A stretch of 59,786 nucleotides of DNA, filler included. It is 5 parts of 5 records of this genome, joined end to end, with 100 filler letters (N's around TTAATTAATTAA, not from the genome) between each part and the next. Parts side by side here need not be neighbours in the genome. Positions count along the whole stretch, not along the records: positions 39,030 to 48,005 come from SRR31156797_3808; 4 more parts are not named here. One strand, 5' to 3'. The notes beneath the pieces were generated by a model, which saw nothing but the letters and a program-made list of their open reading frames with translations, was not told the DNA's origin and did not search any database. Shown piece after piece: positions 15,171-54,561 of this stretch (position 1 is its first letter; each line of letters begins with the position of its first letter). The position numbers and the translations under genes were made by a program.

Positions 15171-15171
15171 G

Positions 15172-25459: not shown

Positions 25460-25559
25460 NNNNNNNNNNNNNNNNNNNNNNNNNNNNNNNNNNNNNNNNN
25501 NNNTTAATTAATTAANNNNNNNNNNNNNNNNNNNNNNNNNNNNNNNNNNNNNNNNNNNN
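25460..25559. other. artificial contig linker
   Basis: N44-TTAATTAATTAA-N44 (stops in all six frames). Confidence 0.98.
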
Positions 25560-26362: not shown

Positions 26363-26868
26363 TACAATAAGTTGAATTCTGTAATATTCTTCTCAAAAGA
26401 AGGTAAATAGCTTTCTTTTATTGATTTAATCTCCTTAGAAATTGTTTTCTTTCCATAGAATGTGATGATTTCATTTATTTCAGTTTTATTCCCTCTTTCT
26501 AAAATTCTTTTAATAATCGCTTTTTTGTTTTTGTCCCAATCAATTTTATTAAAATCAGTATCCCAAAAAAGTACTCTCCTTATATTATTAATGTTAGGTG
26601 TCTCTTTTATTTTATATTCTGCTGTTTTTACGTCATAACTTGCCTGAAGCAACATGAAGTAATCTTTTTCGGTTTTAAATACTTTTGATAGTTTAATTGA
26701 AAGACTTGGGTTAATATCTCTTCGTTTATTTAAGATAGCACTTATTGTTTGCTTATGCTCACCAATATAACAAGCTAATTCAGAGGCTCTTAGATTTCGA
26801 TTATATAACTCCCATCTTAATAATGTGCCAGGATGTATTCCTTTAATTTTACTTAATCTTGGTAACAT
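26362..26868 (-). CDS. antitoxin: HigA-like XRE HTH fused to DUF6922-like domain
   Basis: IHPGTLL..QTISAILNKRRDIN..LQASYD; LFWDTDFNKIDWDKNKKAIIKRILERG; stop overlaps toxin start. Confidence 0.8.
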   Translation of the reverse strand: MLPRLSKIKGIHPGTLLRWELYNRNLRASELACYIGEHKQTISAILNKRRDINPSLSIKLSKVFKTEKDYFMLLQASYDVKTAEYKIKETPNINNIRRVLFWDTDFNKIDWDKNKKAIIKRILERGNKTEINEIITFYGKKTISKEIKSIKESYLPSFEKNITEFNLL

Positions 26869-36815: not shown

Positions 36816-38060
36816 TTATTTTGAATGGCTAAAATGAAATTCCACGCGACGGTTTAAAGCACGACCTTGCTCGGTACTATCAGTAGCAACTGGCTGAGTG
36901 CTTCCAAATCCATAACACTTCATCCGATTCCTCTCTACACCTTTATTAACCAGGAAATTAGCGATAGCCAGAGATCTTTTAAGTGAAAGATTTTCATTAT
37001 AGGAATCAGAACCAACGGCATCAGTATGTCCATTAATGTTTAAAATTACATTCTTTGTTTCCTCTAAAATTTTTGCTAAGCCAGAAAGAAATTGATTGTA
37101 TTCTTCGTTAATATCATGCTTGTTAAATTCAAAAGCAATATGAGACGTAACCACTAATGTGTCTTTTTCATATTTAACATCCACATATTCACCAAAATCA
37201 TGTAATATTTCTTCCATTTTAAATTCCACATCATGTATTGGTAATTTTTTAAAATTTGGGGCCTTAAATGACTCTTGCTCCAAAAATACTCCGGAATCAT
37301 ACAAATCATCACCCACATCTGCAATAACGATTTTGAGTTCATAGGATTCATATGGTTCAACCTTTGTAGCTGCTGTTAATACAGTTGTAAACCCGTCATA
37401 AGTGAACTCTTGTGATCGATATGCTTCCTCAGGGTTTTCCTGCATAGCATCATAATCATATCCTTTATAGATCTTATTAGGAATATAATACTCCTTATTT
37501 CGGCGTGCATTAATATTGTCAACTGTTACAGGACTCCCATCCGGCAGGTGAGCCAAATTTTCGTATAGCATTTCATCGGCTTTTCGAATAAAAAATGCAA
37601 ATACATCATTTACACCTTTATTGACATATTCAGGGTATTCTTCTGAGCCAAAAAAATAACGAAATTGAATGGAGTCGGTATATGGGATAAATTCAATTCT
37701 GAGCACAGCTGCATCATTTGTGCGGTTTTGTACCAACCGACTCAAATCACGATCACCGGGGTAGCCCAAAGGTAATCCTGAATTCCCTCGTCTATTGGGA
37801 GCGCTTACAGCATTGGCATATCCAGTTGTCAGTAGTATTCCTCTATCAATTTCGAAGCCTGGTGTATTATTTACAAAGTAAGCGATTGCATGACGTGATC
37901 CCCAGTAAGAAACATCAGTGATTTTCACACCACTATTAGGTTTTACCAGTTTTTCTTTCACTAATTGTTCTGGTGTCAATCTGTGCCTAACCCACAATTG
38001 CGAATACAAGTCATTGGAAATAAAAAAGATTAGAATTATTATGAAATATACAATTCTCAT
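36816..38060 (-). CDS. choice-of-anchor L domain protein with OmpA C-terminal domain
   Basis: GILLTTG, DAAVL, FGSEEYPEY..NDVFAF, YDGFT, IADVGD..YDSGVF; GHTDAVGS..LSLKRS..NRRVEF. Confidence 0.82.
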   Translation of the reverse strand: MRIVYFIIILIFFISNDLYSQLWVRHRLTPEQLVKEKLVKPNSGVKITDVSYWGSRHAIAYFVNNTPGFEIDRGILLTTGYANAVSAPNRRGNSGLPLGYPGDRDLSRLVQNRTNDAAVLRIEFIPYTDSIQFRYFFGSEEYPEYVNKGVNDVFAFFIRKADEMLYENLAHLPDGSPVTVDNINARRNKEYYIPNKIYKGYDYDAMQENPEEAYRSQEFTYDGFTTVLTAATKVEPYESYELKIVIADVGDDLYDSGVFLEQESFKAPNFKKLPIHDVEFKMEEILHDFGEYVDVKYEKDTLVVTSHIAFEFNKHDINEEYNQFLSGLAKILEETKNVILNINGHTDAVGSDSYNENLSLKRSLAIANFLVNKGVERNRMKCYGFGSTQPVATDSTEQGRALNRRVEFHFSHSK

Positions 38061-38740
38061 GCAAGTTGTTCAAATTCTTTCCATAGGTTATCCTCTAACG
38101 GTAAAGGTGCAGTAATTATTATTGGTTCCTTCTTTACCGGGTGAACAAACTCAAGACTTCTGGCGTGAAGATTTATTCCACCATTTTTATTTGAACGAGG
38201 AAATCCATATTTCAAATCACCACGAATAGGTGAACCCATATGAGCTAATTGGCACCTAATCTGATGATGCCGGCCTGTCTCCAAATTAACTTTAATCAGA
38301 TAAAAGCTTGTGGATCTTCCAATTACTTCATAATCCAACCTGGCTAACTTGGCATTATTTTTTTGTGTTTCTGCCACAAATGATTTGTTCTGCTTTTCAT
38401 CTTTGCGCAGGTAATTCTCTAAGGTTCCTTTAAGCTTTTCGGGTTTTTCCTTTACGATAGCCCAATATTCACGCTTTATTTCACGATTACGCAGTAATTC
38501 ATTCATACGTGATAATGCTTTGGAAGTTCGGGCAACCAGTACAACTCCGCTTACCGGTCTATCAATACGGTGAACAAGTCCTGTAAATACTTTCCCCGGT
38601 TTTTTATACTTTTTACGAATATAATCTTCAACTGCTCCCAAAATGGTCTCATCTCCTGTTTCATCACCCTGCACCAACATACCATTTGGCTTATTAACAG
38701 CAATTAAATGGTTATCTTCATATAATACTTCCAACTTCAT
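38057..38740 (-). CDS. RluA family pseudouridine synthase
   Basis: HRIDRPVSG, TGRHHQIR, GDLKYG, LHARSL. Confidence 0.93.
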   Translation of the reverse strand: MKLEVLYEDNHLIAVNKPNGMLVQGDETGDETILGAVEDYIRKKYKKPGKVFTGLVHRIDRPVSGVVLVARTSKALSRMNELLRNREIKREYWAIVKEKPEKLKGTLENYLRKDEKQNKSFVAETQKNNAKLARLDYEVIGRSTSFYLIKVNLETGRHHQIRCQLAHMGSPIRGDLKYGFPRSNKNGGINLHARSLEFVHPVKKEPIIITAPLPLEDNLWKEFEQLA

Positions 38741-38772
38741 TAATTCCTCCTATCCTTGAATAAAATTATCAA

Positions 38773-38929
38773 TTAATATTGTTCTTTTTCGTTAGGGAAA
38801 CGTTGTTCTTTTACATCACTGACATAAGCTTCTACTGATCCTGATATTTCAGCAAAAAGGTTGTGGTAACGGCGTAAAAATCGCGGTGAAAAATCTTGGG
38901 TAATTCCTAACATATCATGAATTACCAAA
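38773..38929 (-). CDS. panB: 3-methyl-2-oxobutanoate hydroxymethyltransferase, 3' fragment
   Basis: Manual translation LVIHDMLGITQDFSPRFLRRY...YVSDVKEQRFPNEKEQY*. Confidence 0.85.
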
Positions 38930-39029
38930 NNNNNNNNNNNNNNNNNNNNNNNNNNNNNNNNNNNNNNNNNNNNTTAATTAATTAANNNNNNNNNNNNNNN
39001 NNNNNNNNNNNNNNNNNNNNNNNNNNNNN
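38930..39029. other. artificial contig linker
   Basis: N-run with TTAATTAATTAA; sharp GC rise after it. Confidence 0.98.
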
Positions 39030-39495
39030 TGGTGATGATATTGATGACGCCGCCCATGGTGTTGGAGCCGTATAGAACCGATGAAGCGCCCTTGGTCACC
39101 TCGATCCTGGCAACGGAATCCACCGGGATCAGGTCCAGGTCCAGGGAGCCGAAATAGGATTCATGGGCAGGGACGCCGTCGATCAGCACCTTGACATCCA
39201 CCTGGTCAAAGCCCCTGAGCTTCAGGTTCGTGTTCTTGCCGGAGGCCTGAACGTCAATTCCCGGTATGAAGTCAAGGGCTTCGGCAACGGATTGCGCCCC
39301 CTGTTTTTTGATGTCCTCCACGGTGATGGTGTTGACCGTGGTGGCAAGGTCGATGTTGCCGCCCTTATCCTTTACGAGCACATCGCCAAGTTCAAAAACA
39401 GCCTCGGCCGCCTTGGGTTCCATGGCCGGAGACACGGTTGCCTGGCCCAGCATTCCCAGCAGCACAACAAAAGAAAACAGCATTCTTTTGTTCAT
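39030..39495 (-). CDS. TonB-dependent receptor, N-terminal plug (truncated)
   Basis: Signal peptide, LGDVLV TonB box, LRGF..VLIDGVP, RIEVTKGASSVLYGSNTMGGVINIIT. Confidence 0.92.
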
Positions 39496-39592
39496 ATGGT
39501 ACTCCTCTAAAAATTAAATTAGTTAGGGGGCTGATCTTATTTTCGCAGGATTCGCCCACCCGGTAAAAATTAAAAATCATCGGTATAATTCC

Positions 39593-39658
39593 TGGTAAGT
39601 ATTGTCAAGAAAAGTTTTATTTAGGTCTTTGTGCGGAGCATTAATGACCGATAATGAC
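39593..39658 (-). promoter_or_regulatory. TBDR promoter with upstream direct-repeat site
   Basis: Minus-strand TTGACAATACTTACC; TAATGAC-CGA-TAATGAC about 32 bp upstream. Confidence 0.55.
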
Positions 39659-39704
39659 TTTTGCTGACTTGTGGGGAACTGCGCTCGTGAATCGGGGTGG
39701 GGGA

Positions 39705-39737
39705 GTGAGACGGTCCCAGGATGCGGGGCCGTCTCGC
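39705..39737 (-). terminator. GC-rich hairpin after TBDR stop
   Basis: GTGAGACGGTCCC...GGGGCCGTCTCGC; no clear U-tract. Confidence 0.5.
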
Positions 39738-39760
39738 TTGGGTGGTGCGGTGTTCAGGAA

Positions 39761-41827
39761 TTACAGGTCAAGCTTGAAGCCGATCCTGAAGTTTCTTCCC
39801 TGGCCGGGGTAACCGACCTCCTGCTCATAGTCCTCGTCAAAGAGGTTGTCGAGCTCCGCGTAGATGCTCATCTTGTCCTTGAATTTCTTGGAAATCCGGG
39901 TGTTGAGGATGAAGTAATCATCGCTCTTGGTGACTTCGGTGTCCGTATCTTCCGGGGTGGGAAGGTCGTCGTAGATCTCATCCACATAGATGCCCTGGAG
40001 GTCCACCTTGACCAGTACCTTGGGGATGAGGGTGGTGCATCCGATGCCGATCTTGTGCTTGGGAACGCCCGCCACGTCATCGGTGGCCTTGTTGTGACTC
40101 TTGTTTTCCGCCTTATTGTAGGTGTAGTTGGCGTTCATGGAGAAGTACTCGCAGAAAACGACGTTGACGGAGGTTTCGAATCCCATCATGGTAACGTCTT
40201 CCACGTTGGTGAAAATGTCGTCTCCATCCTCGTTCTGGATATAGTCCCTGGAGATCCAGTCTGAGATGTCGTGGTAGAAGCCGGCAATGTCGGCGGTTAC
40301 CCGGCGGTTGAAGGTTTTGGTTACGCCCAGGGTGTAGTTGATGCTCTGTTCAGCGTCCAGGTCCGGGTTGCCGCTGGAGCCGGAGTAGAGCTGGTACAGG
40401 GTGGGGAACCGGGTTTTCTTGGCTATGGAGCCGTAGAGCTTCATCTGGTCGACCTCCCAGGTGAAGCCGGCCATGGGGTTGAACTCGGATTTGGTGCCCG
40501 GCACCTCTTTGTCTACCTGGCCTGTGTAGTCGTCGTTGTAATCCTCGGCATCTTTTACCTCGAACCAGTCATAGGCGGCACCGGCGTAGAGGGTGAGGCC
40601 GAAATCGGTGAAGAACTCGTGTTCAGTGCCGATGGAGCCGGTATCCCCTTCATATTTGTTGTAGGGAAGGTAGTCGTCTTCCCTTGCCTCGTGGGTGTCC
40701 CGCTTGTAGTGGAGGGAGATGTGGCCTTTGTGCATGTCCGCCAGCTGGAAATCGGCGAACAGGGAGCCGCCCACAAAGTCGTCCTTGTAAGAGCTTTTTG
40801 AGATCACATTCTCGTACTCGGGACCATCATAGGAGGCATAGGTGTCCTCGTGGTCGTGGTAGAAAAGCTTGCCCCTCAGGGTGAGGGCGCTTGAGATCGC
40901 CTGTCTGCCGCTGAGGTCTACGCCCCAGTCCCTGTACTTCTCGGACCTGGAAAAGGTGGAAAATGCGGGCTTGCCTCTTTTGGCCGGCCAGTATTTGTAT
41001 TCATTGGTGGCGGGCGGGTTGCCGAATTCGGAATCCATAATGTGGAAACTTGCATAGTATTCGGAATCGGCAGTGGGGGTGATGCCCACCCTTGCCCATA
41101 ACCGGTCCTTGTCATAGTCGGAGTTGGAACGGAAGCCACCGTTCTCGTGGATGCCGTCCAGGTCGGGCATCTTTCTCCGGGCCCGCTTTGCCTCCTGGGG
41201 ATCGAAATCGTCGGACATCCGCCATCCGTCGGACTCTTCATGGAGATAGGTCAGCCAGTAGTTGATCGCCCCGACCTGGTTGCCGTGGGAGATGGAGCCG
41301 GAGTAGGTGCCGTTCTCTCCCATCTCGCCCTTGAAGCTGAAGCTGGGTTTCTGGGTGCCTTTTTTGGTGATCACGTTGATGACGGCGACCTGTGCATTGG
41401 CGCCGTAAAGAACAGAGGGGGCGTTTTTGGTGATCTCGATCTTGCTGATGATACCGGCGGGAATCTGGTCCAGATTGAGTTTGCCGTAGTAGGTCTCGTA
41501 GTAGGGGATACCGTCGATTAAGAAGAGCGCTTTTTCCTGGCCAAAGCCGTGGATGGAAATCTCAGGCTCGTTTTTGCGTCCCCGGGTCATGGTGATGCCG
41601 GGTGCGAATTTAAGGGCGTCAGCAAGGGTGATGCTGTTGGTGGCCTCGATCTCGTCGTGGGTGATGACCTGGGAGATGCCGATGTCAGTTACGTCGGCTT
41701 TTTCACTTGTGACCACGATGTCGCCTAAGGTAAACGTGTCCTGGTCGTCCGGTGTGGCGGCGTACAGGTTTCCAACGGCCACTGTCATCAGAAACGCGGC
41801 TGTCAGAACGTACCGTTTGAACTTCAT
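39761..41827 (-). CDS. TonB-dependent receptor
   Basis: LGDIVVT TonB box, LIDGIP, IEITKNAPSVLYG, GNPDLDAE, NLFDEDY..GRNFRIG. Confidence 0.95.
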   Translation of the reverse strand: MKFKRYVLTAAFLMTVAVGNLYAATPDDQDTFTLGDIVVTSEKADVTDIGISQVITHDEIEATNSITLADALKFAPGITMTRGRKNEPEISIHGFGQEKALFLIDGIPYYETYYGKLNLDQIPAGIISKIEITKNAPSVLYGANAQVAVINVITKKGTQKPSFSFKGEMGENGTYSGSISHGNQVGAINYWLTYLHEESDGWRMSDDFDPQEAKRARRKMPDLDGIHENGGFRSNSDYDKDRLWARVGITPTADSEYYASFHIMDSEFGNPPATNEYKYWPAKRGKPAFSTFSRSEKYRDWGVDLSGRQAISSALTLRGKLFYHDHEDTYASYDGPEYENVISKSSYKDDFVGGSLFADFQLADMHKGHISLHYKRDTHEAREDDYLPYNKYEGDTGSIGTEHEFFTDFGLTLYAGAAYDWFEVKDAEDYNDDYTGQVDKEVPGTKSEFNPMAGFTWEVDQMKLYGSIAKKTRFPTLYQLYSGSSGNPDLDAEQSINYTLGVTKTFNRRVTADIAGFYHDISDWISRDYIQNEDGDDIFTNVEDVTMMGFETSVNVVFCEYFSMNANYTYNKAENKSHNKATDDVAGVPKHKIGIGCTTLIPKVLVKVDLQGIYVDEIYDDLPTPEDTDTEVTKSDDYFILNTRISKKFKDKMSIYAELDNLFDEDYEQEVGYPGQGRNFRIGFKLDL

Positions 41828-41902
41828 TTTATTCCTCCTTTTAAAAAGAACATGTGTTGAACAGGTGTAAATTTCGTTTACAACCCTTCGGTTAAGCTTC
41901 GC

Positions 41903-41980
41903 ATTCTGTTGTTTGGGTAAGTTATTGTCAAGGAAATTTTGGGTTGAAGCTTATGGGGAATATTGATAACCAATAATAAC
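41903..41980 (-). promoter_or_regulatory. TBDR promoter with upstream direct-repeat site
   Basis: Minus-strand TTGACA-N17-CAGAAT; TGATAAC-CAA-TAATAAC about 31 bp upstream of the -35. Confidence 0.6.
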
Positions 41981-42129
41981 AATTGGCTGTGGCGGTCAGT
42001 TTATTTCCGGATGAACGGGACGGCACCTGGGGCTATGGTAAAAAGGTGCTGTTTTTAGTGTTATCTTTGGGTGTTTCTGGTTTGTATTTTCATGCGGTCG
42101 AAGGAAGTTTCCTGTTGCCCAGTAATTGA

Positions 42130-42158
42130 TTGACATTTGGGGTTCGCTTTTCTATAAG
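42130..42158 (+). promoter_or_regulatory. sigma70 promoter of ABC operon
   Basis: TTGACA-N17-TATAAG. Confidence 0.7.
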
Positions 42159-42193
42159 GCCCCTAGCCTTGGACCGGTTCCGGTCTGTTCAGG

Positions 42194-43273
42194 GTGGATG
42201 GAATAATGACGAACAGGAGTGAAAAGATGGGTATGACAGGGAGATCTTGGTTGCGATCGCTGATGGCGATCTCCGGACTGATTCTGATGGTGGTTCTTCT
42301 GCCGGGCCGGGGGTGGGGCGAGGTTCGCACCCTCGAGGACATGGCCGGGCGCACCGTGACCCTGACCCGGGAGGTGAACCGGATCGTCACCACCTTCAAG
42401 CCGTCCTCCCTTTGTCTGTTCTCCCTGGGGCTCCAGGAGAAGCTTGTGGGCATCGACACCAGTTCCAAGCGGGACCGGTTGCTCAAGGCGGTGATGCCCG
42501 GGCTGTCAAAGGTGGCAGGGGTGGGAAGCAAATCCACCGGCATCAATTTTGAAACCGTGGTGGCCCTGAAATCCGACCTTGTGATCCTCTATGCCCAGAA
42601 AAACGGCCTTGAGCTTGCCAACCGGCTGGAGGTGATGGGCATTCAAAGCATCATTATTTTGCCCGAAAGCTTTGACAGCGTGATTACCTCCCTTGAAATC
42701 ATTGCCGCGGCCGCAGGGGTGCCGGAGCAGGCCGGGAAGGTTGAGGCGGCCATGGCCCGCGTGCTCGACATGGTCGAGAAACGGGTGGCAACCCTTGCTG
42801 CCGACCGCCGGAAGACCGGCTACTTCGCTTCTCCCAGGGGTTTTTTCAGCACGGCCACCGGCAGCATGCTCCAGGACGAGATCTTCACACGGGCCGGGGT
42901 GATCAACGTGGGCCACGACCTTGACGGCTACTTCCAGGATATCTCGCCGGAGCAGTTCATGACCTGGAACCCGGACATGGTGATCCTGTCCCAGCACCTT
43001 CACCAGCGGGTGGACAAACAGCTCAACGATCCCGCCCTCAAGCGGGTGACCGCCATTGCCCAAAAAGCCGTGTACCGCTCTCCCAGTGACCTTGCCCCCT
43101 GGGATTTCCCCTCTCCCCTGGCCGTGCTTGGCACCCTGTGGCTTGCCAACAGGGCCTATCCCGGGCTCTTTGACGGGATTGACATGAATCGTGAGATCGA
43201 CCTTTTTCACATCCGTCTGTTCGGCAAATCCCTGGGCGACATGAACGGCAATATCAACGACCAGGTGTATTAA
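42194..43273 (+). CDS. ABC substrate-binding protein (Peripla_BP_2, iron-chelate/cobalamin type)
   Basis: DMAGRTVTL..RIV, INFETVVALKSDLVI, ISPEQFMTWNPDMVI, WDFPSP; exact start uncertain. Confidence 0.9.
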   Translation: MDGIMTNRSEKMGMTGRSWLRSLMAISGLILMVVLLPGRGWGEVRTLEDMAGRTVTLTREVNRIVTTFKPSSLCLFSLGLQEKLVGIDTSSKRDRLLKAVMPGLSKVAGVGSKSTGINFETVVALKSDLVILYAQKNGLELANRLEVMGIQSIIILPESFDSVITSLEIIAAAAGVPEQAGKVEAAMARVLDMVEKRVATLAADRRKTGYFASPRGFFSTATGSMLQDEIFTRAGVINVGHDLDGYFQDISPEQFMTWNPDMVILSQHLHQRVDKQLNDPALKRVTAIAQKAVYRSPSDLAPWDFPSPLAVLGTLWLANRAYPGLFDGIDMNREIDLFHIRLFGKSLGDMNGNINDQVY

Positions 43274-43288
43274 AAGAAACCATTAAAA

Positions 43289-44329
43289 GTGATCCCTATC
43301 CCAAATCATCGTTCAAGAACGACACGGCCCCTTGTTGTTTTTCTTTCCGTCGTGCTGGTGCTCTTGTTCCTGTCCTCCCTGGTGGTGGGCAGGTTTGAAA
43401 TCAAAGTGACCGACATCGGCGCCATGATTTCCGTATTTTTCTCCGGAAGCGCCGTCCCAGAGGACCTTGTGTCGAAACAGCTGGTGTTCTGGTGGATCCG
43501 GCTGCCCCGGTGCATCATGGCCGTGCTGGTGGGTATGGGGCTTTCCGTGTCCGGGGCCGTGTACCAGGCCTTGTTCCGAAATCCCCTTGTGTCCCCGGAT
43601 ATCCTGGGGGTGGCCGCGGGTTGCACTTTTGGCGCGGCCCTGGGGCTTGTGCTGCCGGGATACAATTTCTCACTTGTGCATATTCTTTCCTTCGGGTTCG
43701 GCCTGGTGGCCGTTGCCATGGCCGTGGGCATCGCCCGGCTCATCTCGGTGAAGCCCGTGATCGTGCTGGTGCTGGCCGGCATGGTGGTGATGTCCTTTTT
43801 CAATGCCCTCCTCATGGTGCTCAAATATTTTTCCGATCCCTATGATGAACTGCCGAGCATCGTGTTCTGGATCATGGGCAGCCTCACCCGGGTGACCTGG
43901 AACGACCTCATGGTCATCGCGCCGGTGACCGGGGCCGGGATTGCCTGTTTCATGCTCCTGCGGTTCCGGCTCAATATCCTCTCCTTGGGGGACATCCGGT
44001 CAAAATCCCTGGGCATGAACCCTGCCGTGTTCCGGTCGGTGTTCATTGTGGCAAGCTCCTTCCTGGTGGCCATGACCGTTGCCACCTGCGGCCAGATCTG
44101 CTGGATCGGCCTGATCATTCCCCACATGGCACGGACCCTGGTGGGGCCGGAGCATGAACGCATGCTGCCCGTGACGGCGCTGTTGGGGGCCATATTTTTG
44201 CTGGCCGCGGACGGGACTGCCCGGTCGGTCTCTTCGGCTGAGATCCCCGTGGGTATCATCACGGCGCTTACCGGCGCACCGATTTTCGGGTATCTGCTTT
44301 ACAAGAACAGGGGGAGCGGATGGCTGTGA
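43289..44329 (+). CDS. FecCD/BtuC family ABC permease
   Basis: IRLPR, QALFRNPLVSPDILGV, WIGLIIPHMAR, EIPVGIITALTGAP. Confidence 0.95.
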   Translation: MIPIPNHRSRTTRPLVVFLSVVLVLLFLSSLVVGRFEIKVTDIGAMISVFFSGSAVPEDLVSKQLVFWWIRLPRCIMAVLVGMGLSVSGAVYQALFRNPLVSPDILGVAAGCTFGAALGLVLPGYNFSLVHILSFGFGLVAVAMAVGIARLISVKPVIVLVLAGMVVMSFFNALLMVLKYFSDPYDELPSIVFWIMGSLTRVTWNDLMVIAPVTGAGIACFMLLRFRLNILSLGDIRSKSLGMNPAVFRSVFIVASSFLVAMTVATCGQICWIGLIIPHMARTLVGPEHERMLPVTALLGAIFLLAADGTARSVSSAEIPVGIITALTGAPIFGYLLYKNRGSGWL

Positions 44330-45129
44330 TTCTTGAGTGTAACGCCCTTGGGTTCAGGTACGGCAAGACACAGATCCTCCGGGATATCTCCTTTGATGTG
44401 GAACCCGGCCTCTTTTACGCCATCCTGGGAAAGAACGGCTCCGGCAAGACAACCCTGCTCCATTGCCTCAACGGCATCCACAAGCCCGGCGAGGGCAGTG
44501 TCGAGATCGAGGGCCGGAATATCGCCGATTTGTCCAGGAAGGAGATTGCGCGGCATATCAGCCTGGTGCCCCAGGAGCATATGGATGTCTTTCCCTTCAA
44601 GGTGCTGGACGTGGTGGTCATGGGCCGGGCGCCCTTTATTGGGATGACGGCGACACCGGGGGAGGCGGATTATGGCTTGGCCATGGACGCTTTGAAGATG
44701 TTGGGGTGCGAGAAACTTGCCGACTGCAATTTCAACCGGATCTCCGGGGGGGAGCGCCAGATGACACTCCTGGCCACGGCCCTGGTCCAGACAAGCAAGA
44801 TCATGCTCCTGGACGAACCCACCAACCACCTTGACTTCAATAACCAGTACCGGCTGCTCTCCCGGATCAAAGGGTTGTGCCGGTCCCGGAAAACAAGCGT
44901 GATCGCCACCATGCACGATCCCAATATGGCCATGCTGTTCGCCGACCGGGTGATCATGGTGAAAAACGGCGGGATCGTCGCCAAGGGCAGCGCCAAAGAG
45001 ACCATGACCAACGCCAACATCGACACCCTCTATGGCATCAAAACCGTGGAGATCGGCCAGGTGGACAACAAACATTTTTTTCTGCCGGAGTCGGCGTTTT
45101 TCGACCCGGAAACAAACGGCGGAGCATAA
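44320..45129 (+). CDS. ABC ATPase (FecE/BtuD-like)
   Basis: GKNGSGKTT, ISGGERQ, LLDEPTNHLD, MHDPN. Confidence 0.95.
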   Translation: MAVILECNALGFRYGKTQILRDISFDVEPGLFYAILGKNGSGKTTLLHCLNGIHKPGEGSVEIEGRNIADLSRKEIARHISLVPQEHMDVFPFKVLDVVVMGRAPFIGMTATPGEADYGLAMDALKMLGCEKLADCNFNRISGGERQMTLLATALVQTSKIMLLDEPTNHLDFNNQYRLLSRIKGLCRSRKTSVIATMHDPNMAMLFADRVIMVKNGGIVAKGSAKETMTNANIDTLYGIKTVEIGQVDNKHFFLPESAFFDPETNGGA

Positions 45130-45135
45130 GGAACC

Positions 45136-45672
45136 ATGCAGATTATCATCACAGGGGATGTGCAGTCGGGAAAATCCACCCTGGCGGCAGGACTCGTAAC
45201 GTTCCTGGAAGAGAGGGGCGTGGCCATGGCCGGCATCCTTGCCATGGGGCTCTGGAAGGACGACCGGCGCCACGGGTTTGACCTGGTGGACCTGAAAACC
45301 GGGGAAAAGACTCCTCTTGCACGGCGCAGGACCGATCCCGCCGACGGCGCCATCACCCCGTTTCAATTTTTCGATGCGGGCATGGCTGCGGGGGGAAAGG
45401 CCCTTGATGCGGCCCGCTGCCGGGATGCCGCCATGATCATGGTGGACGAGGTGGGCAAGCTCGAACTCAAGGGCAGGGGCTGGGCGCCCTTTCTCGATGC
45501 CCTGCTTTCCATCGAACCGGCCGTTCATATCTGGATCGTCCGGGAAAGCCTGGTGGAGGAGGTGTGCCGACGCTGGCAATTTCAAACGCCTGTCATCGTC
45601 CGTGCGGATGATGGCGACAGCCTTGAAAGGCTTAAGGCATTATGCATAAAGGAACATTGCAATGACAACTGA
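45136..45672 (+). CDS. NTPase_1/THEP1 (DUF2478-like) P-loop NTPase
   Basis: IITGDVQSGKST, RHGFDLVDL, MVDEVGKLELKGRGW. Confidence 0.82.
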   Translation: MQIIITGDVQSGKSTLAAGLVTFLEERGVAMAGILAMGLWKDDRRHGFDLVDLKTGEKTPLARRRTDPADGAITPFQFFDAGMAAGGKALDAARCRDAAMIMVDEVGKLELKGRGWAPFLDALLSIEPAVHIWIVRESLVEEVCRRWQFQTPVIVRADDGDSLERLKALCIKEHCNDN

Positions 45673-46438
45673 TCTTCCCCTTTTTATTTACTGGGGCATG
45701 GCCGGGTGCTTTTTAACGGCCCTGGTTCTGGGCCTGCTTAAGCAAAGGGGCTTGAGCCGGGCGGCAGGCCTGTGCGGCACCCTTGTGAGCGGGGCCGGGG
45801 TGGCTTGCCTCATGGTTACGGAACACCGGTTTCCCCTGTACGGGTCCCTTGAGTCCATTATTTATGTCTCGTTTCTCCTGACCCTGCTGGAGCTGTTCAC
45901 CGCTCCCCGGACAAGGACCGGTACCGGTTCCAGGAATACCCTCCATCTCATGACCCTTGGGATCATCTGCATCCTGCTGGTTCTCCAGGTCCGGCGGACC
46001 ATGGCGTTCAACCCCGATTTCTTCATGTATGAAGATCTCTGGGTCAATCTCTTTTTTAACCTGCGCCTGGTGGCCGGGGCTATTTTTGCCTGGGCAGCCG
46101 TGCTTTTCATGGCCGGGGCCCGGACCCTTTCCAAATCAAAGACTCAGGACCGGGCGGACCGGGAAAAACGGGACAGGCTCATGGCCGGGGGGCGCAATTT
46201 CCTTTTGACCGGCGTTGCCGTCTATCTTGCCAGCGAATGGTCCGGTTCCCTCTGGTGCCTCAACTGGATGGGGGATTCCTGGCAATGGAGCAGGGGCTTT
46301 TTCAAGTCAGGCATCATCTTTCTGCTGGTCATGGCGGCAAGCCATCTGCCCCGGTCCCTGGCAGCTTCGGACAGGGCAAAGGCGCTCCTGGGCGCCTGTC
46401 CCGCCGTTTACATTCTTTGGATGCTGTTCCAGCATTGA
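45662..46438 (+). CDS. divergent CcsA/ResC-like (WWD superfamily) membrane protein
   Basis: HRFPLYGSLES resembles CcsA GHxPxxNxYES; GSLWCLNWMGDSWQWS resembles GxxWAxxxWGxxWxWD; AASHLP TM His. Confidence 0.7.
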   Translation: MTTDLPLFIYWGMAGCFLTALVLGLLKQRGLSRAAGLCGTLVSGAGVACLMVTEHRFPLYGSLESIIYVSFLLTLLELFTAPRTRTGTGSRNTLHLMTLGIICILLVLQVRRTMAFNPDFFMYEDLWVNLFFNLRLVAGAIFAWAAVLFMAGARTLSKSKTQDRADREKRDRLMAGGRNFLLTGVAVYLASEWSGSLWCLNWMGDSWQWSRGFFKSGIIFLLVMAASHLPRSLAASDRAKALLGACPAVYILWMLFQH

Positions 46439-46452
46439 TGACAGGAGGCGTT

Positions 46453-47280
46453 ATGATCCGGTTTTTTTCTTCCCTTAGACTTACCTTTGTATCGCTGGTG
46501 ATGCTGGTTTTATTGTTGTGGCTGGGCACGGTCTTTTCCCTGTTTCCCGATCTCAAGGACGGCATCGAGCTCATGAACCACGTCCTGATCTACCAATGGT
46601 TCTTTACGGCCTGGCAGGATGGCTGGATTCTGCCGGTCTGGTTTCTCGCTATTTGCATTACGGCAGGGCTTCTCTTTGCGAACACCCTGGTGTGCAGCGT
46701 TACCAAGCAGCTGGTGACGGCCCTGAAGGTGGCGACCCTTCGGCGCTGGTCCTTTTTCATGATCCATATTTTTTTCCTCGTGGTGCTCTTCTGCCACGGC
46801 ATATCCCTGGTGGCCGGGCACAAGGCGAGCAACATCCAGCTGTTCGAGGGGGATATCCATCAGATTGATACCCTCACCATTCGAGTGGAGGAGATCACAT
46901 TCAGTGACGATTCCGAATTCCTGAAGCTCGGGCCCCGGAAGAGCCGGGAGCTCATGACCCGGGATAAATTCCACAGAACAGCCAATTTTGCCGAGCTCCA
47001 TGTCACGGAAGGGGACAAACCCGTGGTTGACGGGCGGGTCATGATGCTTTCTCCCCTGAAACGGGGCATCACCCAGTTCACCCTGACAAAGTTCATCTAC
47101 GGCAGGGGCGATCACGAAGGGGAGATCGGCATCAATCTCAACGTGACCCGAAATGCGTTTACACAATTGTTCTTCATTATATATGCACTAATGATATTTT
47201 CCCTGGTGTGCTTCATTGTCATTACCTGGACACCCCAGGGACAAAAGGAGCGTTCCCATGAACCAGAAACAGTTGATTGA
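46453..47280 (+). CDS. short CcsB/ResB-like membrane protein
   Basis: AGGAGG RBS; FFSSLRLT, NTLVCS, FFMIHIFFL match ResB N-terminal pattern; periplasmic domain and final TM. Confidence 0.65.
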   Translation: MIRFFSSLRLTFVSLVMLVLLLWLGTVFSLFPDLKDGIELMNHVLIYQWFFTAWQDGWILPVWFLAICITAGLLFANTLVCSVTKQLVTALKVATLRRWSFFMIHIFFLVVLFCHGISLVAGHKASNIQLFEGDIHQIDTLTIRVEEITFSDDSEFLKLGPRKSRELMTRDKFHRTANFAELHVTEGDKPVVDGRVMMLSPLKRGITQFTLTKFIYGRGDHEGEIGINLNVTRNAFTQLFFIIYALMIFSLVCFIVITWTPQGQKERSHEPETVD

Positions 47281-48001
47281 TCTTGTCTTAAGCCAGTTGG
47301 ACTCCATCCCGGACCATGAGGTTACCCGCCATGCCTACGGCGCACACATCGTGGGAGTGGAAAGCCGTACCGTGGGCCTTGCCACCTGGGCTTGCGGAAA
47401 ACACCCCATCCCCGTTGACACGCTGCCGGATCTTGACCGGTCCTGCTCGGCAAAGGAGCTTGCCCAACTGCTCCATGAGGATGATCCCCTGAAGAGCTCC
47501 CTGGGCATGGCGGCCCTCAATTCCCTACTCCCCGATCCCGCTTCCGAAGATGTGATCGATGTCAATGCCGGAGATTTGATCCTGGACCTTGGCAAGGAAA
47601 AGCGGGTGGCCGTCATCGGCCATTTCCCCTTTGTAGAGCGCATGAAGGGGAAGTTCAAGGAGCTCATCGTGTTTGAGAAAAAGCCCCAGTCCGGTGACCT
47701 TGACGCCGATCTCATCCCGGAGCGCCTGCCGTCGGCGGATATCGTCGCCGTCACGGCCACCACCTTTTCCAACGGCTCCCTGGCAGGTATCCTCTCAAAT
47801 TGCTCGGAATCGGCCGTAAAGCTCATCATCGGTCCCAGCACCCCCGTCTCCCCCGTCCTGTTCAAGCTCGGGTTCGACTATGTGGCCGGCATCGTGGTCA
47901 AAGACAAGGAAACCGTGTGGCAGGGAATCGCGGACGGCCGCTCCTTCAAGCAGATCAAGGGCGTCCGCCATGTCATATTGGGGTCAGGCCTAGCTTATTA
48001 G
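47258..48001 (+). CDS. DUF364 (Rossmann-like) / DUF4213 protein
   Basis: LGMAALNSL, VAVIGHFP, VTATTFSNGSL, IIGPSTP; AAGGAG RBS before ATG 47258. Confidence 0.85.
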   Translation: MNQKQLIDLVLSQLDSIPDHEVTRHAYGAHIVGVESRTVGLATWACGKHPIPVDTLPDLDRSCSAKELAQLLHEDDPLKSSLGMAALNSLLPDPASEDVIDVNAGDLILDLGKEKRVAVIGHFPFVERMKGKFKELIVFEKKPQSGDLDADLIPERLPSADIVAVTATTFSNGSLAGILSNCSESAVKLIIGPSTPVSPVLFKLGFDYVAGIVVKDKETVWQGIADGRSFKQIKGVRHVILGSGLAY

Positions 48002-48005
48002 CTTA

Positions 48006-48105
48006 NNNNNNNNNNNNNNNNNNNNNNNNNNNNNNNNNNNNNNNNNNNNTTAATTAATTAANNNNNNNNNNNNNNNNNNNNNNNNNNNNNNNNNNNNNNN
48101 NNNNN
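48006..48105. other. artificial contig linker
   Basis: N-run with TTAATTAATTAA. Confidence 0.98.
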
Positions 48106-48679
48106 TCACAGGCTGTGTATTTGCGACGAACTCTTCATAATTTGTAAGCCCGTCATCGTCTGCATCTTCATCGGCGTCGTATTCAAATGGGTTCAGTCCG
48201 TATTGGATTTCCCAGTCGTCGTCCATACCATCGTTGTCATCATCGGTATCCCCATTGTTTCCGATTCCGTCGCCGTCGGCATCCGCCCATTCATTGGAAT
48301 CATTGGGGAACTGATCCAGGCTGTCGGGAACCCCATCCTGATCACTGTCTGTATTCGTGCTTTTTGGCGTATAAGAGACTTCTACGGAGTCAGCGCTCTC
48401 CAAATCGCCTTCAAAGGCGCGGACAACAAAATAGTATGTGACGCCTTCAACAAGACCGGTCAGCGTACAGATAGCCCCATGGTGTTCCCAAGTGGGATTC
48501 TTGTAGTCATAGTTGTGACCTTCCTGCCTAAGGAAAACACGATATCCGTCAGGCGCAGGCTCGTTTGGATACCATGCCAATGAGACGTTTGCACTGTAGG
48601 CAATCGCGGTGTTGAGGAAAAGAATTGTGATAAAAGCAAATATACTTTTTACAGCGGAAAAAGTGAAACGAGACATCAT
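48106..48679 (-). CDS. secreted FN3 plus Asp-rich TSP3-like repeat protein (truncated)
   Basis: Signal peptide, VSLAW..GYRV..LTGL..TYYFVVRA..ES, DSDQDGVPD, DDDNDGMDDDWE. Confidence 0.85.
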
Positions 48680-48734
48680 ACATCTCCCAATTTGTTTACC
48701 GTGCGATCAGCAACAAATTTGAGAGATGCTGAAT

Positions 48735-48826
48735 TCGCTCGGCAGCCCTGCCGCCATGACCGTGTTCGGTTTTAGGCCGTTTGCTTTGCGTCACACCCTT
48801 TCGGGTGTTTTGCCTTTTTCAAGCGA
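48735..48826 (-). ncRNA. cyclic di-GMP-I (GEMM-I) riboswitch
   Basis: Reverse complement TCGCT..AAGGCAAA-ACACCCGAAAGGGTGT-GACGCAAAGC..GGCCTAA..ATGGCGGCAGGGCTGCCGAGCGA. Confidence 0.92.
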
Positions 48827-49058
48827 GTTACTTCTTATAATCGAATTCTACTACCACGCAGGGACCTGCGTTATTGAGTTCCCATTGTTAACGCCTCCAT
48901 ATTCATCAAAAGGATGATTGTCATAATGTGCTTCCTTAAATGTTGTTTCGCCGTTTTAAAAAAAAACTTTAAAAATCGTGTTGGAAAAAATTAAAGCAAC
49001 CGCGTATTTTGTATGAATATCCCATGAATAAGGATTGTTATCTGGAGTTGCTCGATCG

Positions 49059-50369
49059 TCAGGACGAAAAAGCTTCCGTCGTCTTAAAATAGAGCGTAAA
49101 AACACTTCCGACGGACGGCTTGCTTTTGACATCCATCCGACAACCATGGGTTTCCAGGATTCGATAAACAATGGAGAGCCCCAACCCGGTTCCTTTCGAT
49201 TTTGTCGTAAAGAAAGGATTGAAGATGGATGTGATTGTTTTTTCATCCATGCCGCATCCGTTATCTGCAATCTCAACCTGAACGCGTCTATTGTTTAATT
49301 TGTTTACAGCTACTTTGATCTTGCCTTTATCTTCAATGGATTCTGCTCCATTTAGTAAAAGGTTCCAAAGCACCTGGTGCAATTGCGTCGGATCAATTTT
49401 AATATGGACGGCGGGTATGCTTTGCAGTTCCACATCAATCCTTCGTTTGACTGAATTGTCTTTTTTAAACAACTCTAAAATTTGAGAAACGGTACCCGGC
49501 AAATTGACACATTTTTTATGACCGACAGCAGGCCGTGCAAAAGAGAGAAAATTGTTGACCAAATCACTTAATCGATCTGTTTCCCTCAAGACAATGTTCA
49601 TCAGGTGCTTGTTTCCGCTTTCATCCTCTTCCATTTCACTGTTTAACAACTGGATGGCACCGGATATGGATGCCAGTGGATTTTTTATTTCATGGGCAAG
49701 CCCGGAAGCCATCTCACCGATTTGAGCAAGGTTCTGGACCCGTCCCAAGTGAGCTTCCATCGCCTGCAACTCTGCTTTGGATTGCTTTTCCTGATCTGAC
49801 AGATAACCACTTAAAAGAGCCACAGCAAAACAAGCGGCTGTTAAGATACCGCTTTTTTGAAAAATTTGAGCTGGGTTAAGCCCGTTTCCAGTCGTTAGAT
49901 CAACATACCCAAACGGGTCGAACACACCCTTTGCTTGCAAAAGAAGCAGGATTGTATATTGCGCAGCACAACCTGCTGCAGCAACAAGGCAGCCATTTTT
50001 ATACACAAATACACTCGCATAAATAATCACCAGGAGATAAAGAAAGGGAAAGACGCTCGCATAGCCTCCGGTAATAATAACCACCAGGCTGATGAACAGG
50101 CTGTCCATGATGATCTGGCTAATGATGAAAGGATGCTGGTATCGGCTGCCCGTAGAAAAAAAAATGCCATACAGCGCGCAAAGAAAGATCATGAAGCCGG
50201 CGACGATGTACAATAACTCTATGGAGGGAGAAACATCGTTCAGGCGATTGCCAATCTGATAGACGACAGTCGAACCGATCAGGATAAGAGCAAAAAGCAG
50301 CCGGAAGGACATCAGCCATTTCAGTTTATGGCGAGTCTTTTTTTTATCTGTGTTACCGGCTGTGACCAC
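49059..50369 (-). CDS. pilS: PilS-like sensor histidine kinase
   Basis: KLKWLMSFRL, VIITGG..SVFPFLY, AHEIKNPLASISG, NPFFTTK..GTGLGL; follows pilC; start (GTG) estimated. Confidence 0.82.
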   Translation of the reverse strand: MVTAGNTDKKKTRHKLKWLMSFRLLFALILIGSTVVYQIGNRLNDVSPSIELLYIVAGFMIFLCALYGIFFSTGSRYQHPFIISQIIMDSLFISLVVIITGGYASVFPFLYLLVIIYASVFVYKNGCLVAAAGCAAQYTILLLLQAKGVFDPFGYVDLTTGNGLNPAQIFQKSGILTAACFAVALLSGYLSDQEKQSKAELQAMEAHLGRVQNLAQIGEMASGLAHEIKNPLASISGAIQLLNSEMEEDESGNKHLMNIVLRETDRLSDLVNNFLSFARPAVGHKKCVNLPGTVSQILELFKKDNSVKRRIDVELQSIPAVHIKIDPTQLHQVLWNLLLNGAESIEDKGKIKVAVNKLNNRRVQVEIADNGCGMDEKTITSIFNPFFTTKSKGTGLGLSIVYRILETHGCRMDVKSKPSVGSVFTLYFKTTEAFSS

Positions 50370-50397
50370 AGTATCAACCGCAGAACTCACCTGAAAT

Positions 50398-51603
50398 TTA
50401 TAAATTTCCGGCCATTTTGAAGATCGGGAGGTACATGGAAACGACCAACCCGCCCACGACAACACCAAGAAATACGATCATGAAGGGTTCAATGAGCGAT
50501 GTTAAATTTTCCACAGCCTGATCAACCTCTTCTTCATAAAAGTCTGCGATCTTTTGAAGCATGGCATCCAACGCGCCTGTCGATTCACCTACGGATATCA
50601 TCTGACAGACCATGGCCGGGAAAACACCGCTGTCAGCCAAAGGATCAGCCATTGTTCGTCCTTCGGAGATACCGCTTCTGACGGAATAAATCGCCCGTTC
50701 GATGGTTTTGTTCCCTGACGTCTTTGCTACGATATCCAAGGCTTCCAAAATTGCCACACCACTGGAGAGCATTGTCCCCATGGTTTGGGTAAAGTTGGCC
50801 ACCGCCACTTTTCGAAGAAGCATTCCAAAAACAGGTAGCTTCAAAACGGTTGCATCGACCTGAATTTTGCCCTTTTCCGTATTATAATATTTCTTGAAAG
50901 CGAAAATGAACAGAATCATACCGATAATGATCCAGTGAATTTTTGTTTGAACGAATTCACTCATACCGACAACAAAAAGTGTCGGAGCAGGTAGCGACCC
51001 CCCCATGTCGGCAAACATTTCCTCAAACACGGGGATAACAAAAATGAGAATAACCGCAACACAGATAATCGCAATAACAATGGTTACGGCTGGGTAGGTC
51101 AGTGCACCTTTCACCTGACTTTTCAATCTTGCCGCTTTTTCCATGTGAGCGGAAAGCCTTCGTAAAATTGTGTCAAGAATACCGCCCGCCTCTCCCGCCG
51201 CGACCATGTTCACGAAAAGATCATCAAACTGTTTGGGGTATTTTTTCAGAGCGTCTGCTAGTGTCGACCCGCTTTCCACCTGCTCCTTGATTGATTTGAG
51301 CATTTTTTTAAACGTGGCATTTTCCTGTTGCGCGTGCAGAATATCCATGCACTGGATAATGGGAAGACCGGCATCGATCATCGTGGAAAATTGCCGGCAA
51401 AACAAGATGACATCTTTTTTCGTTACTTTTGGTTGCAAAAAAGAGATGTTTTCAAACAAGTCCTTCGGTTTCTTCTTTATCTTTGTCGGTACAATACGAA
51501 GTCGACCAAGATTGGCACGAACGGCTTCTACACCGCCAGCCTGCATCTCGCCCTTTTGAAGGATATTATTTCTGTTTTTTCCTTCCCATACGAATATCGG
51601 CAT
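50398..51603 (-). CDS. pilC: type IV pilus inner membrane protein PilC (T2SSF family)
   Basis: FCRQFSTMIDAGLP, AGEAGGILD, ALTYP, GESTGALDAML, SMYLPIF. Confidence 0.93.
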   Translation of the reverse strand: MPIFVWEGKNRNNILQKGEMQAGGVEAVRANLGRLRIVPTKIKKKPKDLFENISFLQPKVTKKDVILFCRQFSTMIDAGLPIIQCMDILHAQQENATFKKMLKSIKEQVESGSTLADALKKYPKQFDDLFVNMVAAGEAGGILDTILRRLSAHMEKAARLKSQVKGALTYPAVTIVIAIICVAVILIFVIPVFEEMFADMGGSLPAPTLFVVGMSEFVQTKIHWIIIGMILFIFAFKKYYNTEKGKIQVDATVLKLPVFGMLLRKVAVANFTQTMGTMLSSGVAILEALDIVAKTSGNKTIERAIYSVRSGISEGRTMADPLADSGVFPAMVCQMISVGESTGALDAMLQKIADFYEEEVDQAVENLTSLIEPFMIVFLGVVVGGLVVSMYLPIFKMAGNL

Positions 51604-54461: not shown

Positions 54462-54561
54462 NNNNNNNNNNNNNNNNNNNNNNNNNNNNNNNNNNNNNNN
54501 NNNNNTTAATTAATTAANNNNNNNNNNNNNNNNNNNNNNNNNNNNNNNNNNNNNNNNNNNN
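54462..54561. other. artificial contig linker
   Basis: N-run with TTAATTAATTAA. Confidence 0.98.

Follow-up and report, generated by a model that had tools for sequence, protein, structure and literature searches.

Gene organization of the locus

The window, meaning the whole stretch of 59,786 nucleotides (nt) analysed here, is made of five joined pieces, one of which (39030-48005, about 54-59% G+C) carries a plus-strand operon for an ATP-binding cassette (ABC) importer. The same operon encodes two small membrane proteins, referred to as TM1 and TM2, that are the subject of this work. TM1 (45662..46438, +) is a divergent CcsA-like membrane protein of the WWD family, with 258 amino acids (aa) and eight predicted transmembrane (TM) helices, and TM2 (46453..47280, +) is a short CcsB/ResB-like protein of 275 aa. 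They constitute a real, conserved CcsA-like/CcsB-like pair missed by standard annotation, nothing relevant being found for either protein in Pfam and NCBIfam, even at E-values up to 10. An initial annotation of the sequence had described them as a CcsBA-like pair that keeps the membrane histidines of cytochrome c synthases, appears to lack their periplasmic heme-attachment site, and would bind heme without being a synthase.

The operon is tightly packed, with genes that overlap or lie a few bases apart. It starts with a periplasmic substrate-binding protein of the BtuF/FhuD class (42194..43273, +; Pfam Peripla_BP_2, E 2e-24; start codon uncertain), followed by a FecCD/BtuC-type ABC permease (43289..44329, +; Pfam FecCD, E 9e-79), an ABC ATPase (44320..45129, +; Pfam ABC_tran, E 2e-29) whose gene overlaps that of the permease by 10 nt, and a P-loop NTPase of the NTPase_1/DUF2478 type (45136..45672, +; PF03266, E 4e-19; PF10649, E 4e-6), which in turn overlaps TM1 by 11 nt. 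After TM1 and TM2, the last gene encodes a DUF4213 + DUF364 protein (47258..48001, +; PF04016, E 7e-35; PF13938, E 7e-11; alternative TTG start at 47216) with matches 3l5o and 3npg in the Protein Data Bank (PDB), and the contig piece ends at 48005. The presence of Peripla_BP_2, FecCD, and ABC_tran in one operon denotes a type II (BtuCD/FecCD) ABC importer with a cluster-A binding protein. Divergently from the operon lies the gene of a TonB-dependent outer-membrane receptor (39761..41827, -; Pfam Plug and TonB_dep_Rec_b-barrel), whose closest PDB sequences are BtuB, Cir, and FepA, the match being limited to the plug domain. A divergent promoter region (41828..42193) separates the receptor gene from the operon.

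The TM2 start codon was placed at 46453 rather than at 46438 or 46237, because an AGGAGG box stands 6 nt upstream of this ATG and most relatives begin with the same methionine (MIR or MIQ). Another possible ATG, at 46438, shares bases with the stop codon of TM1. TM2 residues are numbered from 46453 throughout.

TM1 as a relative of System II CcsA

The AlphaFold2 model of TM1 is of high quality, with a predicted local distance difference test score (pLDDT) of 90.6 and a predicted TM-score (pTM) of 0.90. Searched against the PDB with Foldseek, it retrieves CcmF (6zmq, E 0.052), CcsBA (7s9y, E 0.063), and a second CcsBA structure (7s9z) as its top three matches, each with a probability of at least 0.97, whereas all later matches reach at most 0.44 and are unrelated helical-membrane noise. 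The Foldseek match to 7s9y has a TM-score on the query (TMq) of 0.71 and a root-mean-square deviation of 3.8 Å. By this fold search, the shared TM-helix core of the WWD superfamily is present in TM1, and the likeness to CcsBA noticed in the initial annotation is borne out.

A profile search of 1.84 billion representative proteins returned 145 TM1 relatives at E ≤1e-3, of which 70 at E ≤1e-30. Aligned by hhalign with 13 PF01578 proteins, the TM1 family gives a probability of 95.3% (E 2.3e-8); the 215 aligned columns bring the WWD tryptophans and H228 into register. Single alignments with the CcsA-type proteins P0217 and P0219 give 94.6-94.8%. The CcmC, CcmF, and YpjD branches, represented by the E. 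coli proteins, were tried as well and rejected, as they reach probabilities of 0.1%, 0.2%, and 0.25%, respectively, which places the TM1 family outside of them. Of 26 relatives chosen by hand over the whole ranking, most of them weaker hits, 18 have a PF01578 match at E ≤0.1 and six pass its gathering score, two of these six being the ordinary CcsA-type proteins P0217 and P0219. In the ESM Atlas, the nearest clusters of TM1 contain PF01578 in 12%, 82%, and 98% of their members, and the nearest clusters of both TM1 and TM2 are mostly from Thermodesulfobacteriota. On these sequence comparisons, the TM1 family branches off from System II CcsA.

In databases, the relatives are called "hypothetical protein", apart from two UniRef labels, one beginning "Cytochrome c a..." and the other reading "ResB-like domain-containing protein". 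A search of the open-access literature retrieved no paper on the TM1 family, on its linkage to an importer, or on HRM2_13480, the TM2 homologue of Desulforapulum autotrophicum HRM2. This strain and Desulfocicer vacuolatum DSM 3385, source of locus L020, are cultured hosts.

TM2 and its association with TM1

TM2 begins with three TM helices, continues with a beta-rich domain in the periplasm, and ends with a single TM helix at the C-terminus. Its AlphaFold2 model (pLDDT 73) matches 7s9z (E 6.9e-5), 7s9y (E 9e-5), and CcmF (E 8.6e-3) in Foldseek. PF05140 (ResB/CcsB) does not match TM2 in Pfam at E-values up to 10, and the nearest ESM Atlas clusters carry PF05140 ResB in 53%, 40%, and 91% of their members.

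The helix bearing the histidine of interest reads RWSFFMIHIFFLVVLFCHG. H105, within FMIHIF (46765..46767, +), lies six residues past an R-R-W cluster and is invariant in the 33 aligned loci of the clade to which the operon belongs. In Helicobacter hepaticus CcsBA, H83 likewise stands six residues past two lysines, so that H105 is taken as its equivalent, the inner-leaflet membrane heme ligand on the CcsB side, by position and fold rather than by a scored alignment. This helix also carries, ten residues higher and within the outer leaflet, the extra Cys-His pair C114-H115 (46792..46797, +), already pointed out in the initial annotation, whose positions read G-A in H. hepaticus. C114, H115, M168, and R170 are each found in at least 90% of the 33 sequences, and T169 and N178 are invariant. 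The only sequence devoid of C-H is the L036 homologue (L036:8835-9596), in which a 21-residue deletion removes the motif; the deletion may be natural or may stem from the assembly.

A genome-contig scan yielded 37 Desulfobacterales loci of the TM1 clade, and in all of them TM2 directly follows TM1. The spacer between both genes is of at most 17 nt in 27 of the 33 measurable pairs, the six others (L010, L011, L017, L020, L023, and L034) displaying 54-326 nt. The prediction of the TM1-TM2 complex gave an ipSAE (interaction prediction score from aligned errors) of 0.87 in each of three runs, the best control being at 0.00. This mark is reached by 51 of 78 solved complexes and by two of 108 mismatched pairs. 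Unlike this calibration, the TM1-TM2 prediction included two heme molecules, and it ran without the family alignments. At least 95% of the contacts agree between runs, and the pLDDT of the partner is at least 83. As the fused CcsBA is already solved, this result may reflect likeness rather than independent evidence. The confident interface brings residues 116-125 and 175-233 of TM1 together with residues 8-29, 115, 118, 165-175, 198-212, and 230-260 of TM2. Thus, the first and last helices of TM2, its H115, and its M-T-R loop touch the WWD side of TM1.

Retained membrane histidines and a remodelled outer site

Conservation was assessed on 96 full-length family representatives, after exclusion of the two canonical proteins and of 41 fragments of less than 215 aa, and on a clade set of 33 aligned genome loci, with the C-terminal residue read in all 37. 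The strings quoted in the initial annotation are all found at their places, with LWVNLFFN at TM1 126-133, WQWSRGF at 207-213, AASHLP and the final QH further on, and FMIHIF in TM2. H228 of AASHLP (46343..46345, +), equivalent of the CcsA-side membrane heme ligand, is kept in 95 of the 96 representatives and, with the invariant H105 of TM2, bears out the claim that both membrane histidines were retained.

The residue map to H. hepaticus CcsBA was obtained through P0217, which aligns to the CcsBA chain and, by counting, gives H761, W828-W845, H858, and H897. The three histidine positions agree with Table 1 of PMC11322641, where H858 is listed as TM-His1, H83 as TM-His2, H761 as the first periplasmic histidine (P-His1), and H897 as the second (P-His2). 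Accordingly, W198 of TM1 corresponds to W828, C199 to A829, G204 to G834, W207 to W837, W209 to W839, S210 to D840, G212 to K842, F213 to E843, and H228 to H858, and the spacing of +19 from the last WWD tryptophan to the membrane histidine is identical in TM1 and P0217.

The segment L126-N133 (LWVNLFFN; 46037..46060, +), at the periplasmic start of helix 5, occupies the place of the canonical CcsA P-His1 and has no histidine. The P-His1 column falls on N129 in the alignments with the 13 PF01578 proteins and with one single template, or on F131 with the other, so that a proper profile alignment upholds the reported loss. Indeed, the only histidines of TM1 are at 55, 95, 228, and 258, of which the first two are not conserved, and no alignment can therefore supply a P-His1. 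A histidine occurs somewhere in 127-134 in 22 of the 96 representatives, and at the C-terminus in 23; 52 have none either in 127-134 or in the last three residues. In a subgroup including P0095, P0100, P0101, P0108, P0113, P0121, P0123, and others, F-H-x-x-R replaces F-F-N-L-R, often with N-H or Y-N-H a few residues earlier and with no C-terminal histidine; judging from the motif, these proteins may retain a P-His1-like ligand. As to complementary variation between a TM1 histidine at 133 and loss of the TM2 C-H motif, the single available pair (L013) has both the histidine and C-H.

The remodelled WWD loop of TM1, W198-K215 (46253..46306, +), reads WCLNWMGDSWQWSRGFFK. Its tryptophans are retained almost throughout the family (W198 in 96/96, W207 in 94/96, W209 in 92/96), as are E192 (90/96), R135 (86/96), F131 (93/96), and, less strictly, F132 (79/96). 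By contrast, the D-x-K-E end of the WWD motif is gone, as had been stated: it reads S-R-G-F, with G-F at the K-E positions, and position 210 holds Ser in 66 representatives, Asn in 16, Gly in eight, and Asp in only one. Seen in this many relatives, the pattern is not accidental. The cysteine C199 is present in 50 of the 96 representatives and in at least 90% of the 33-locus clade, in which F131, F132, R135, E192, W198, W202, W207, W209, H228, and H258 are invariant.

TM1 has no P-His2 loop, and the protein ends in LFQH, with H258 (46433..46435, +) directly after the last helix. The initial annotation had read this final QH as the reduced remnant of the synthase tail, an interpretation as decay that does not hold since histidine is the last residue in 36 of the 37 loci (L019 being the exception) and is invariant in the 33 aligned ones. 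The conserved terminal histidine indicates that the tail is shortened yet under selection, and that the outer site is remodelled rather than simply lost. The alignments to canonical proteins end at residue 229 and thus give no match of H258 to P-His2, for which it is a possible substitute. From the positive-inside loop pattern and the model helices, we infer that H228 would stand at the cytoplasmic end of helix 7 and H258 at the periplasmic end of helix 8, where the P-His2 loop of the synthase begins. The picture of a missing periplasmic site is thus right for P-His1 and D-x-K-E, and wrong for the WWD tryptophans, which are kept and joined by new conserved ligand candidates. The outer site of the pair looks rebuilt, the candidate ligands of the clade being C199, H258, C114-H115 of TM2, and the M168-T169-R170 loop of TM2.

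Conservation of the genomic context

Each of the 36 loci with upstream sequence encodes homologues of BtuF, BtuC, and BtuD ahead of the pair, on the strand of TM1 and TM2; the remaining locus, L030, begins inside TM1. In L036, an insert of about 5 kb separates the importer genes from the NTPase gene. The NTPase is found between BtuD and TM1 in 22 of the 37 loci, and DUF364, by tblastn, after TM2 in 16. An orthologous divergent receptor (59-76% identity) is present in 18 loci, while 22 loci have a TonB receptor of some kind. DUF364 and DUF2478-type NTPases are described as associated with rare-metal transport, and DUF364 with ABC transporters (PMC2954201).

The genes located past DUF364 are not conserved (47 downstream open reading frames from 15 loci), and no cytochrome c or thiol-redox gene was found among these 47. 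Likewise, neither CXXCH nor CXXCK occurs in any of the eight operon proteins. Single loci display other neighbours, and beyond these the downstream genes give no clue to the substrate. A LarC-type nickel-insertion gene is found just downstream of TM2 in L018 (9769-11091), and a CobW-type GTPase gene with ExbB/ExbD/TonB genes adjoins the operon in L027 (9781-13095); a nickel or cobalt connection is a possible hint from these neighbours, each seen in one locus only. A second, distant BtuF/C/D-like set (24-42% identity) directly follows TM2 in three loci (L026:7808-10565, L028:9528-12427, and L031:9555-12409), and another such set is found upstream in L025.

Substrate and regulation

The BtuC, FhuB, and FecCD matches of the permease to NCBIfam equivalogs are all below the cut-offs, as are the best matches of the ATPase (heme, F420-0, and corrinoid ATPases), among which the heme ABC ATPase model scores best. 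The nearest solved structures of the binding protein are 4hn9, an iron-complex binding protein (E 1e-35), 4ovk, HI_1472 (3psa), and 4ino/4ls3, the chains of which were submitted as nickel/iron ABC periplasmic binding proteins. For BtuF and heme binders, the E-values are only about 1e-5 to 1e-6. BtuF and a heme binder are some 20-30 orders of magnitude weaker than the best match, 4hn9.

No cobalamin riboswitch was detected in 38000-49000, in the receptor/operon spacer at a relaxed threshold, or in the eight related loci scanned. This spacer has no Rfam match at the gathering score, a single weak freshwater-2 match (E 0.47) lying well below it. No Fur box with up to three mismatches occurs in the window, and the best 19-mers of 19 orthologous spacers fit the Fur consensus at 11-14 of 19 positions only. 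Promoter and terminator scans performed no better than on shuffled sequence. Two 10-mers, TATTGTCAAG and TGTTGTCAAG, are each found in six of the 19 orthologous receptor-operon spacers (loci L001-L023; 41900-41935 in the window), one of the window copies overlapping a promoter-like TTGACA on the minus strand, and they may represent a shared regulatory site.

Other features of the window

The five pieces come from unrelated contigs and differ in G+C content (from 32% to 59%) and in gene content. They are joined by four spacers (25460-25559, 38930-39029, 48006-48105, and 54462-54561), each consisting of two runs of 44 N flanking 12 bases, and genes cut by a spacer are truncated, as for 38974-39495 and 48050-48679. 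The latter, a minus-strand open reading frame rich in Asp repeats that enters the N spacer, is located just downstream of a full-length cyclic di-GMP-I riboswitch (48738-48824, -; 76 bits for a gathering score of 35, E 7e-14). The first piece includes a mevalonate-pathway cluster (11780-16134, +) with genes for HMG-CoA reductase, a diphosphomevalonate decarboxylase-like protein, and GHMP kinases, and it is the only piece encoding Por_Secre_tail proteins, typical of Bacteroidota. Elsewhere, an AbiEii-type nucleotidyltransferase toxin gene stands by a helix-turn-helix/DUF6922 gene (25721-26868, -), the two looking like a type IV toxin-antitoxin pair. At 49059-51603 (-), a T2SSF/PilC-type platform gene shares its end with an overlapping gene for a PilS-like histidine kinase, whose sensor domain is of the 6TM type.

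Proposed function

The characterized members of the WWD superfamily are described as all acting in cytochrome c maturation, and their marks are a four-helix core, the WWD loop, and two periplasmic histidines. The active site is reported to comprise P-His1, P-His2, and WWD, all four histidines being needed for synthase function (PMC10663686, PMC6299221, PMC11322641). In both CcsBA and CcmF, a heme of the inner leaflet is ligated by the membrane histidine pair; this site is presented as a transit site for heme in CcsBA (PMC10663686, PMC11322641), whereas CcmF is portrayed as a cytochrome in which a stable heme held in the membrane reduces heme that reaches the WWD site (PMC10663686).

The odds are about even that TM1 and TM2 make up a miniaturized and diverged CcsB-CcsA complex, which is no synthase and now serves, as a dedicated accessory, a metal-chelate uptake operon of the TonB-dependent, BtuCD type in Desulfobacterales. 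Within this proposal, the parts differ in strength. The analysis itself shows the homology to CcsA and CcsB by fold and profile, the two retained membrane histidines, the missing P-His1 and Asp/Lys/Glu end of WWD, and the strict linkage of both genes to each other and to the importer genes. As the most strictly selected residues, H228 and H105, correspond to the inner-leaflet ligand pair of CcsBA and CcmF, a heme b is probably held between them in the inner leaflet, a placement suggested by residue equivalence. The pair very probably does not attach heme to CXXCH, because P-His1 and the WWD Asp are gone, no CXXCH partner is encoded, and an importer is the constant neighbour. The initial view that the pair is no synthase is supported by the importer operon and by the lack of CXXCH in eight of eight proteins.

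What such a heme would do is more tentative. It could be a fixed redox cofactor, passing electrons from the cytoplasmic side to the rebuilt outer pocket, where an imported periplasmic substrate, e.g., a ferric or other metal chelate or a tetrapyrrole, would be reduced before or during ABC import. This pocket would comprise the WWD tryptophans, C199, H258, C114-H115 of TM2, and the M-T-R cap loop of TM2. Such an electron conduit in the manner of CcmF, working for an uptake system on its imported cargo, is proposed by analogy and falls somewhat short of an even chance. A more elaborate form is unlikely, namely that in this clade the CcsBA scaffold serves as a transmembrane redox module with a permanent heme b in the inner leaflet and a second site, for a cofactor or substrate, where the WWD pocket used to be, delivering electrons to the metal chelate imported through TonB and the ABC transporter. 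The second site may then even hold a heme tethered or ligated by the WWD cysteine C199, and H115 of TM2 or H258 would stand in for the lost P-His1. In H. hepaticus CcsBA, the W828C and E843C substitutions are reported to crosslink to heme (PMC6299221); C199 adjoins the equivalent of W828, and F213 is at the position of E843.

Several observations weigh against the proposed accessory and electron-conduit roles. At the level of homology, PF01578 does not match TM1 at the gathering score or even at E-values up to 10, a profile of 35 TM1 relatives retrieves nothing from all PDB sequences at E-values up to 10, and the Foldseek E-values of TM1 are weak (0.05-0.15). With an hhalign probability of 0.2% for E. 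coli CcmF, the analogy to CcmF is functional and implies no specific relationship. C199 and H258 are not among the confident interface residues of the complex model, which thus leaves a composite outer site unsupported, and both C199 and the terminal histidine are features of the clade, being found in 50/96 and 23/96 of the wider family. Finally, no regulatory element pointing to iron or B12 appeared in the scans, an ABC importer has no obvious need of a reductase, and sulfate reducers in reduced habitats have no obvious need for ferric chelates.

Other explanations have to be considered on the same evidence. The pair could work as a tetrapyrrole channel, having kept the CcsBA transport of heme or a related tetrapyrrole and lost only the thioether-forming site, in order to export heme to a non-covalent periplasmic acceptor of the uptake system or to take scavenged heme inward. 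The closest detectable sequence relative of TM1 is indeed System II CcsA (95%, vs 0.2% for CcmF and 0.1% for CcmC), in which the membrane histidine site is described as a transit site (PMC10663686, PMC11322641); the tryptophans that cradle heme are kept, and the ATPase scores best with the heme ABC ATPase model, though below the cut-off. However, a complete import route already exists in the operon with the receptor, the binding protein, and the ABC importer, no acceptor protein is evident there, heme binders are less close to the binding protein than iron-complex, HI_1472, and nickel/iron binders are, and in 52 of 96 family members neither 127-134 nor the last three residues offer a histidine that could receive heme. 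Such a channel, in either direction, is unlikely. The heme itself might also be dispensed with if the old channel, together with C199, H258, and C114-H115 of TM2, bound a metal ion or chelate and helped to release or pass on the metal, or merely stabilized the importer. The gain of two cysteines and two histidines specifically in the clade, the link of DUF364 and DUF2478-type NTPases to rare-metal transport (PMC2954201), and the nearby LarC-type gene (L018) and CobW-type GTPase gene with ExbBD-TonB (L027) would fit such a role. This is nevertheless a rather poor prospect, for the residues kept most strictly are the heme ligands of CcsBA and CcmF (H228 in 95/96, H105 of TM2 in 33/33), while the cysteines and histidines of the clade are far less general in the wider family and the closeness of the four residues is unsupported by the complex model.

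Lastly, the pair could be a specialized cytochrome c/heme lyase acting on an unusual acceptor encoded elsewhere, like the CcsA paralogues dedicated to non-standard heme-binding motifs. Both subunits of the synthase architecture are retained, with a beta-rich cap domain over the WWD loop, and the conserved terminal histidine could act as P-His2. This is very unlikely given that TM1 has neither P-His1 nor the WWD Asp, that no CXXCH or CXXCK protein is encoded in the operon, and that the pair adjoins importer genes in each of the 36 loci with sequence upstream, thiol-redox and cytochrome genes being absent from the stretches examined.

Whatever its exact role, the family, which comprises about 145 clusters at 50% identity, still has the core of the scaffold and its membrane heme ligands, but the periplasmic ligands have been dropped or replaced in it. 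One of its clades is locked to a TonB/ABC uptake operon. Should the accessory complex prove to bind heme b and to be required for uptake, holding heme and attaching it would stand apart as two functions of the scaffold. The complex would then offer a natural test case for the disputed roles of the membrane heme (transit vs redox) and of the WWD residues, as well as a first functional handle on many unassigned FecCD-type importers, DUF364 proteins, and DUF2478-type NTPases of anaerobes. The redox module, if true, would add a new functional class to the WWD superfamily and provide type II ABC importers with a new kind of accessory.

Comparison with known systems

The closest known system is the System II synthase, CcsB-CcsA or fused CcsBA (H. 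hepaticus; 7s9y, 7s9z; PF01578 + PF05140). It shares with TM1-TM2 the two-subunit architecture and the folds of both proteins, and its R-x-P...E loop, WWD tryptophans, and two membrane histidines are in register with them. However, CcsBA has about 900 aa, whereas the 258 + 275 aa found here amount to about half. Moreover, the pair has no P-His1, displays WxWS-x-G-F instead of WxWD-x-K-E and a terminal histidine instead of the P-His2 loop, carries an extra cysteine in the WWD loop and an extra C-H in the CcsB-like helix, and stays below the Pfam thresholds. Its surroundings differ as well, being an importer operon rather than cytochrome or thiol-redox genes.

CcsA-family membrane proteins encoded outside a synthase operon have precedents. 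E. coli YpjD, annotated as a "cytochrome c assembly family protein", is one of them and is devoid of the Trp-rich loop. Bacillus HemX is another CcsA-family membrane protein located outside the cytochrome c synthase operon.

CcmF of System I (6zmq), the best Foldseek match of TM1 by E-value, provides a conceptual precedent with its fixed membrane heme, described as bis-His ligated. P-His1, P-His2, and the WWD Asp are all present in it, and its partners are CcmH and CcmE; nothing of this sort is encoded here. A further lead, likened to the present operon by its description only and the nearest hint in the literature, is the BT2473-BT2482 cluster of Bacteroides thetaiotaomicron, a strongly iron-regulated acquisition locus that is reported to be induced by iron starvation and includes CcsA-annotated genes (PMC10434189). 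Its partners as described there are different, namely a porin, a thiol oxidoreductase, and a peptidase M75.

On the functional side, FoxB and FsrB are analogues, described as inner-membrane reducers of periplasmic ferric siderophores acting after TonB-dependent receptors (10.1101/2021.01.28.428567, PMC10760861). The analogy is purely functional. These reductases, encoded together with TonB receptors, have another fold. They are depicted as feeding iron to other transporters, whereas the operon of TM1 and TM2 encodes a full ABC importer of its own.

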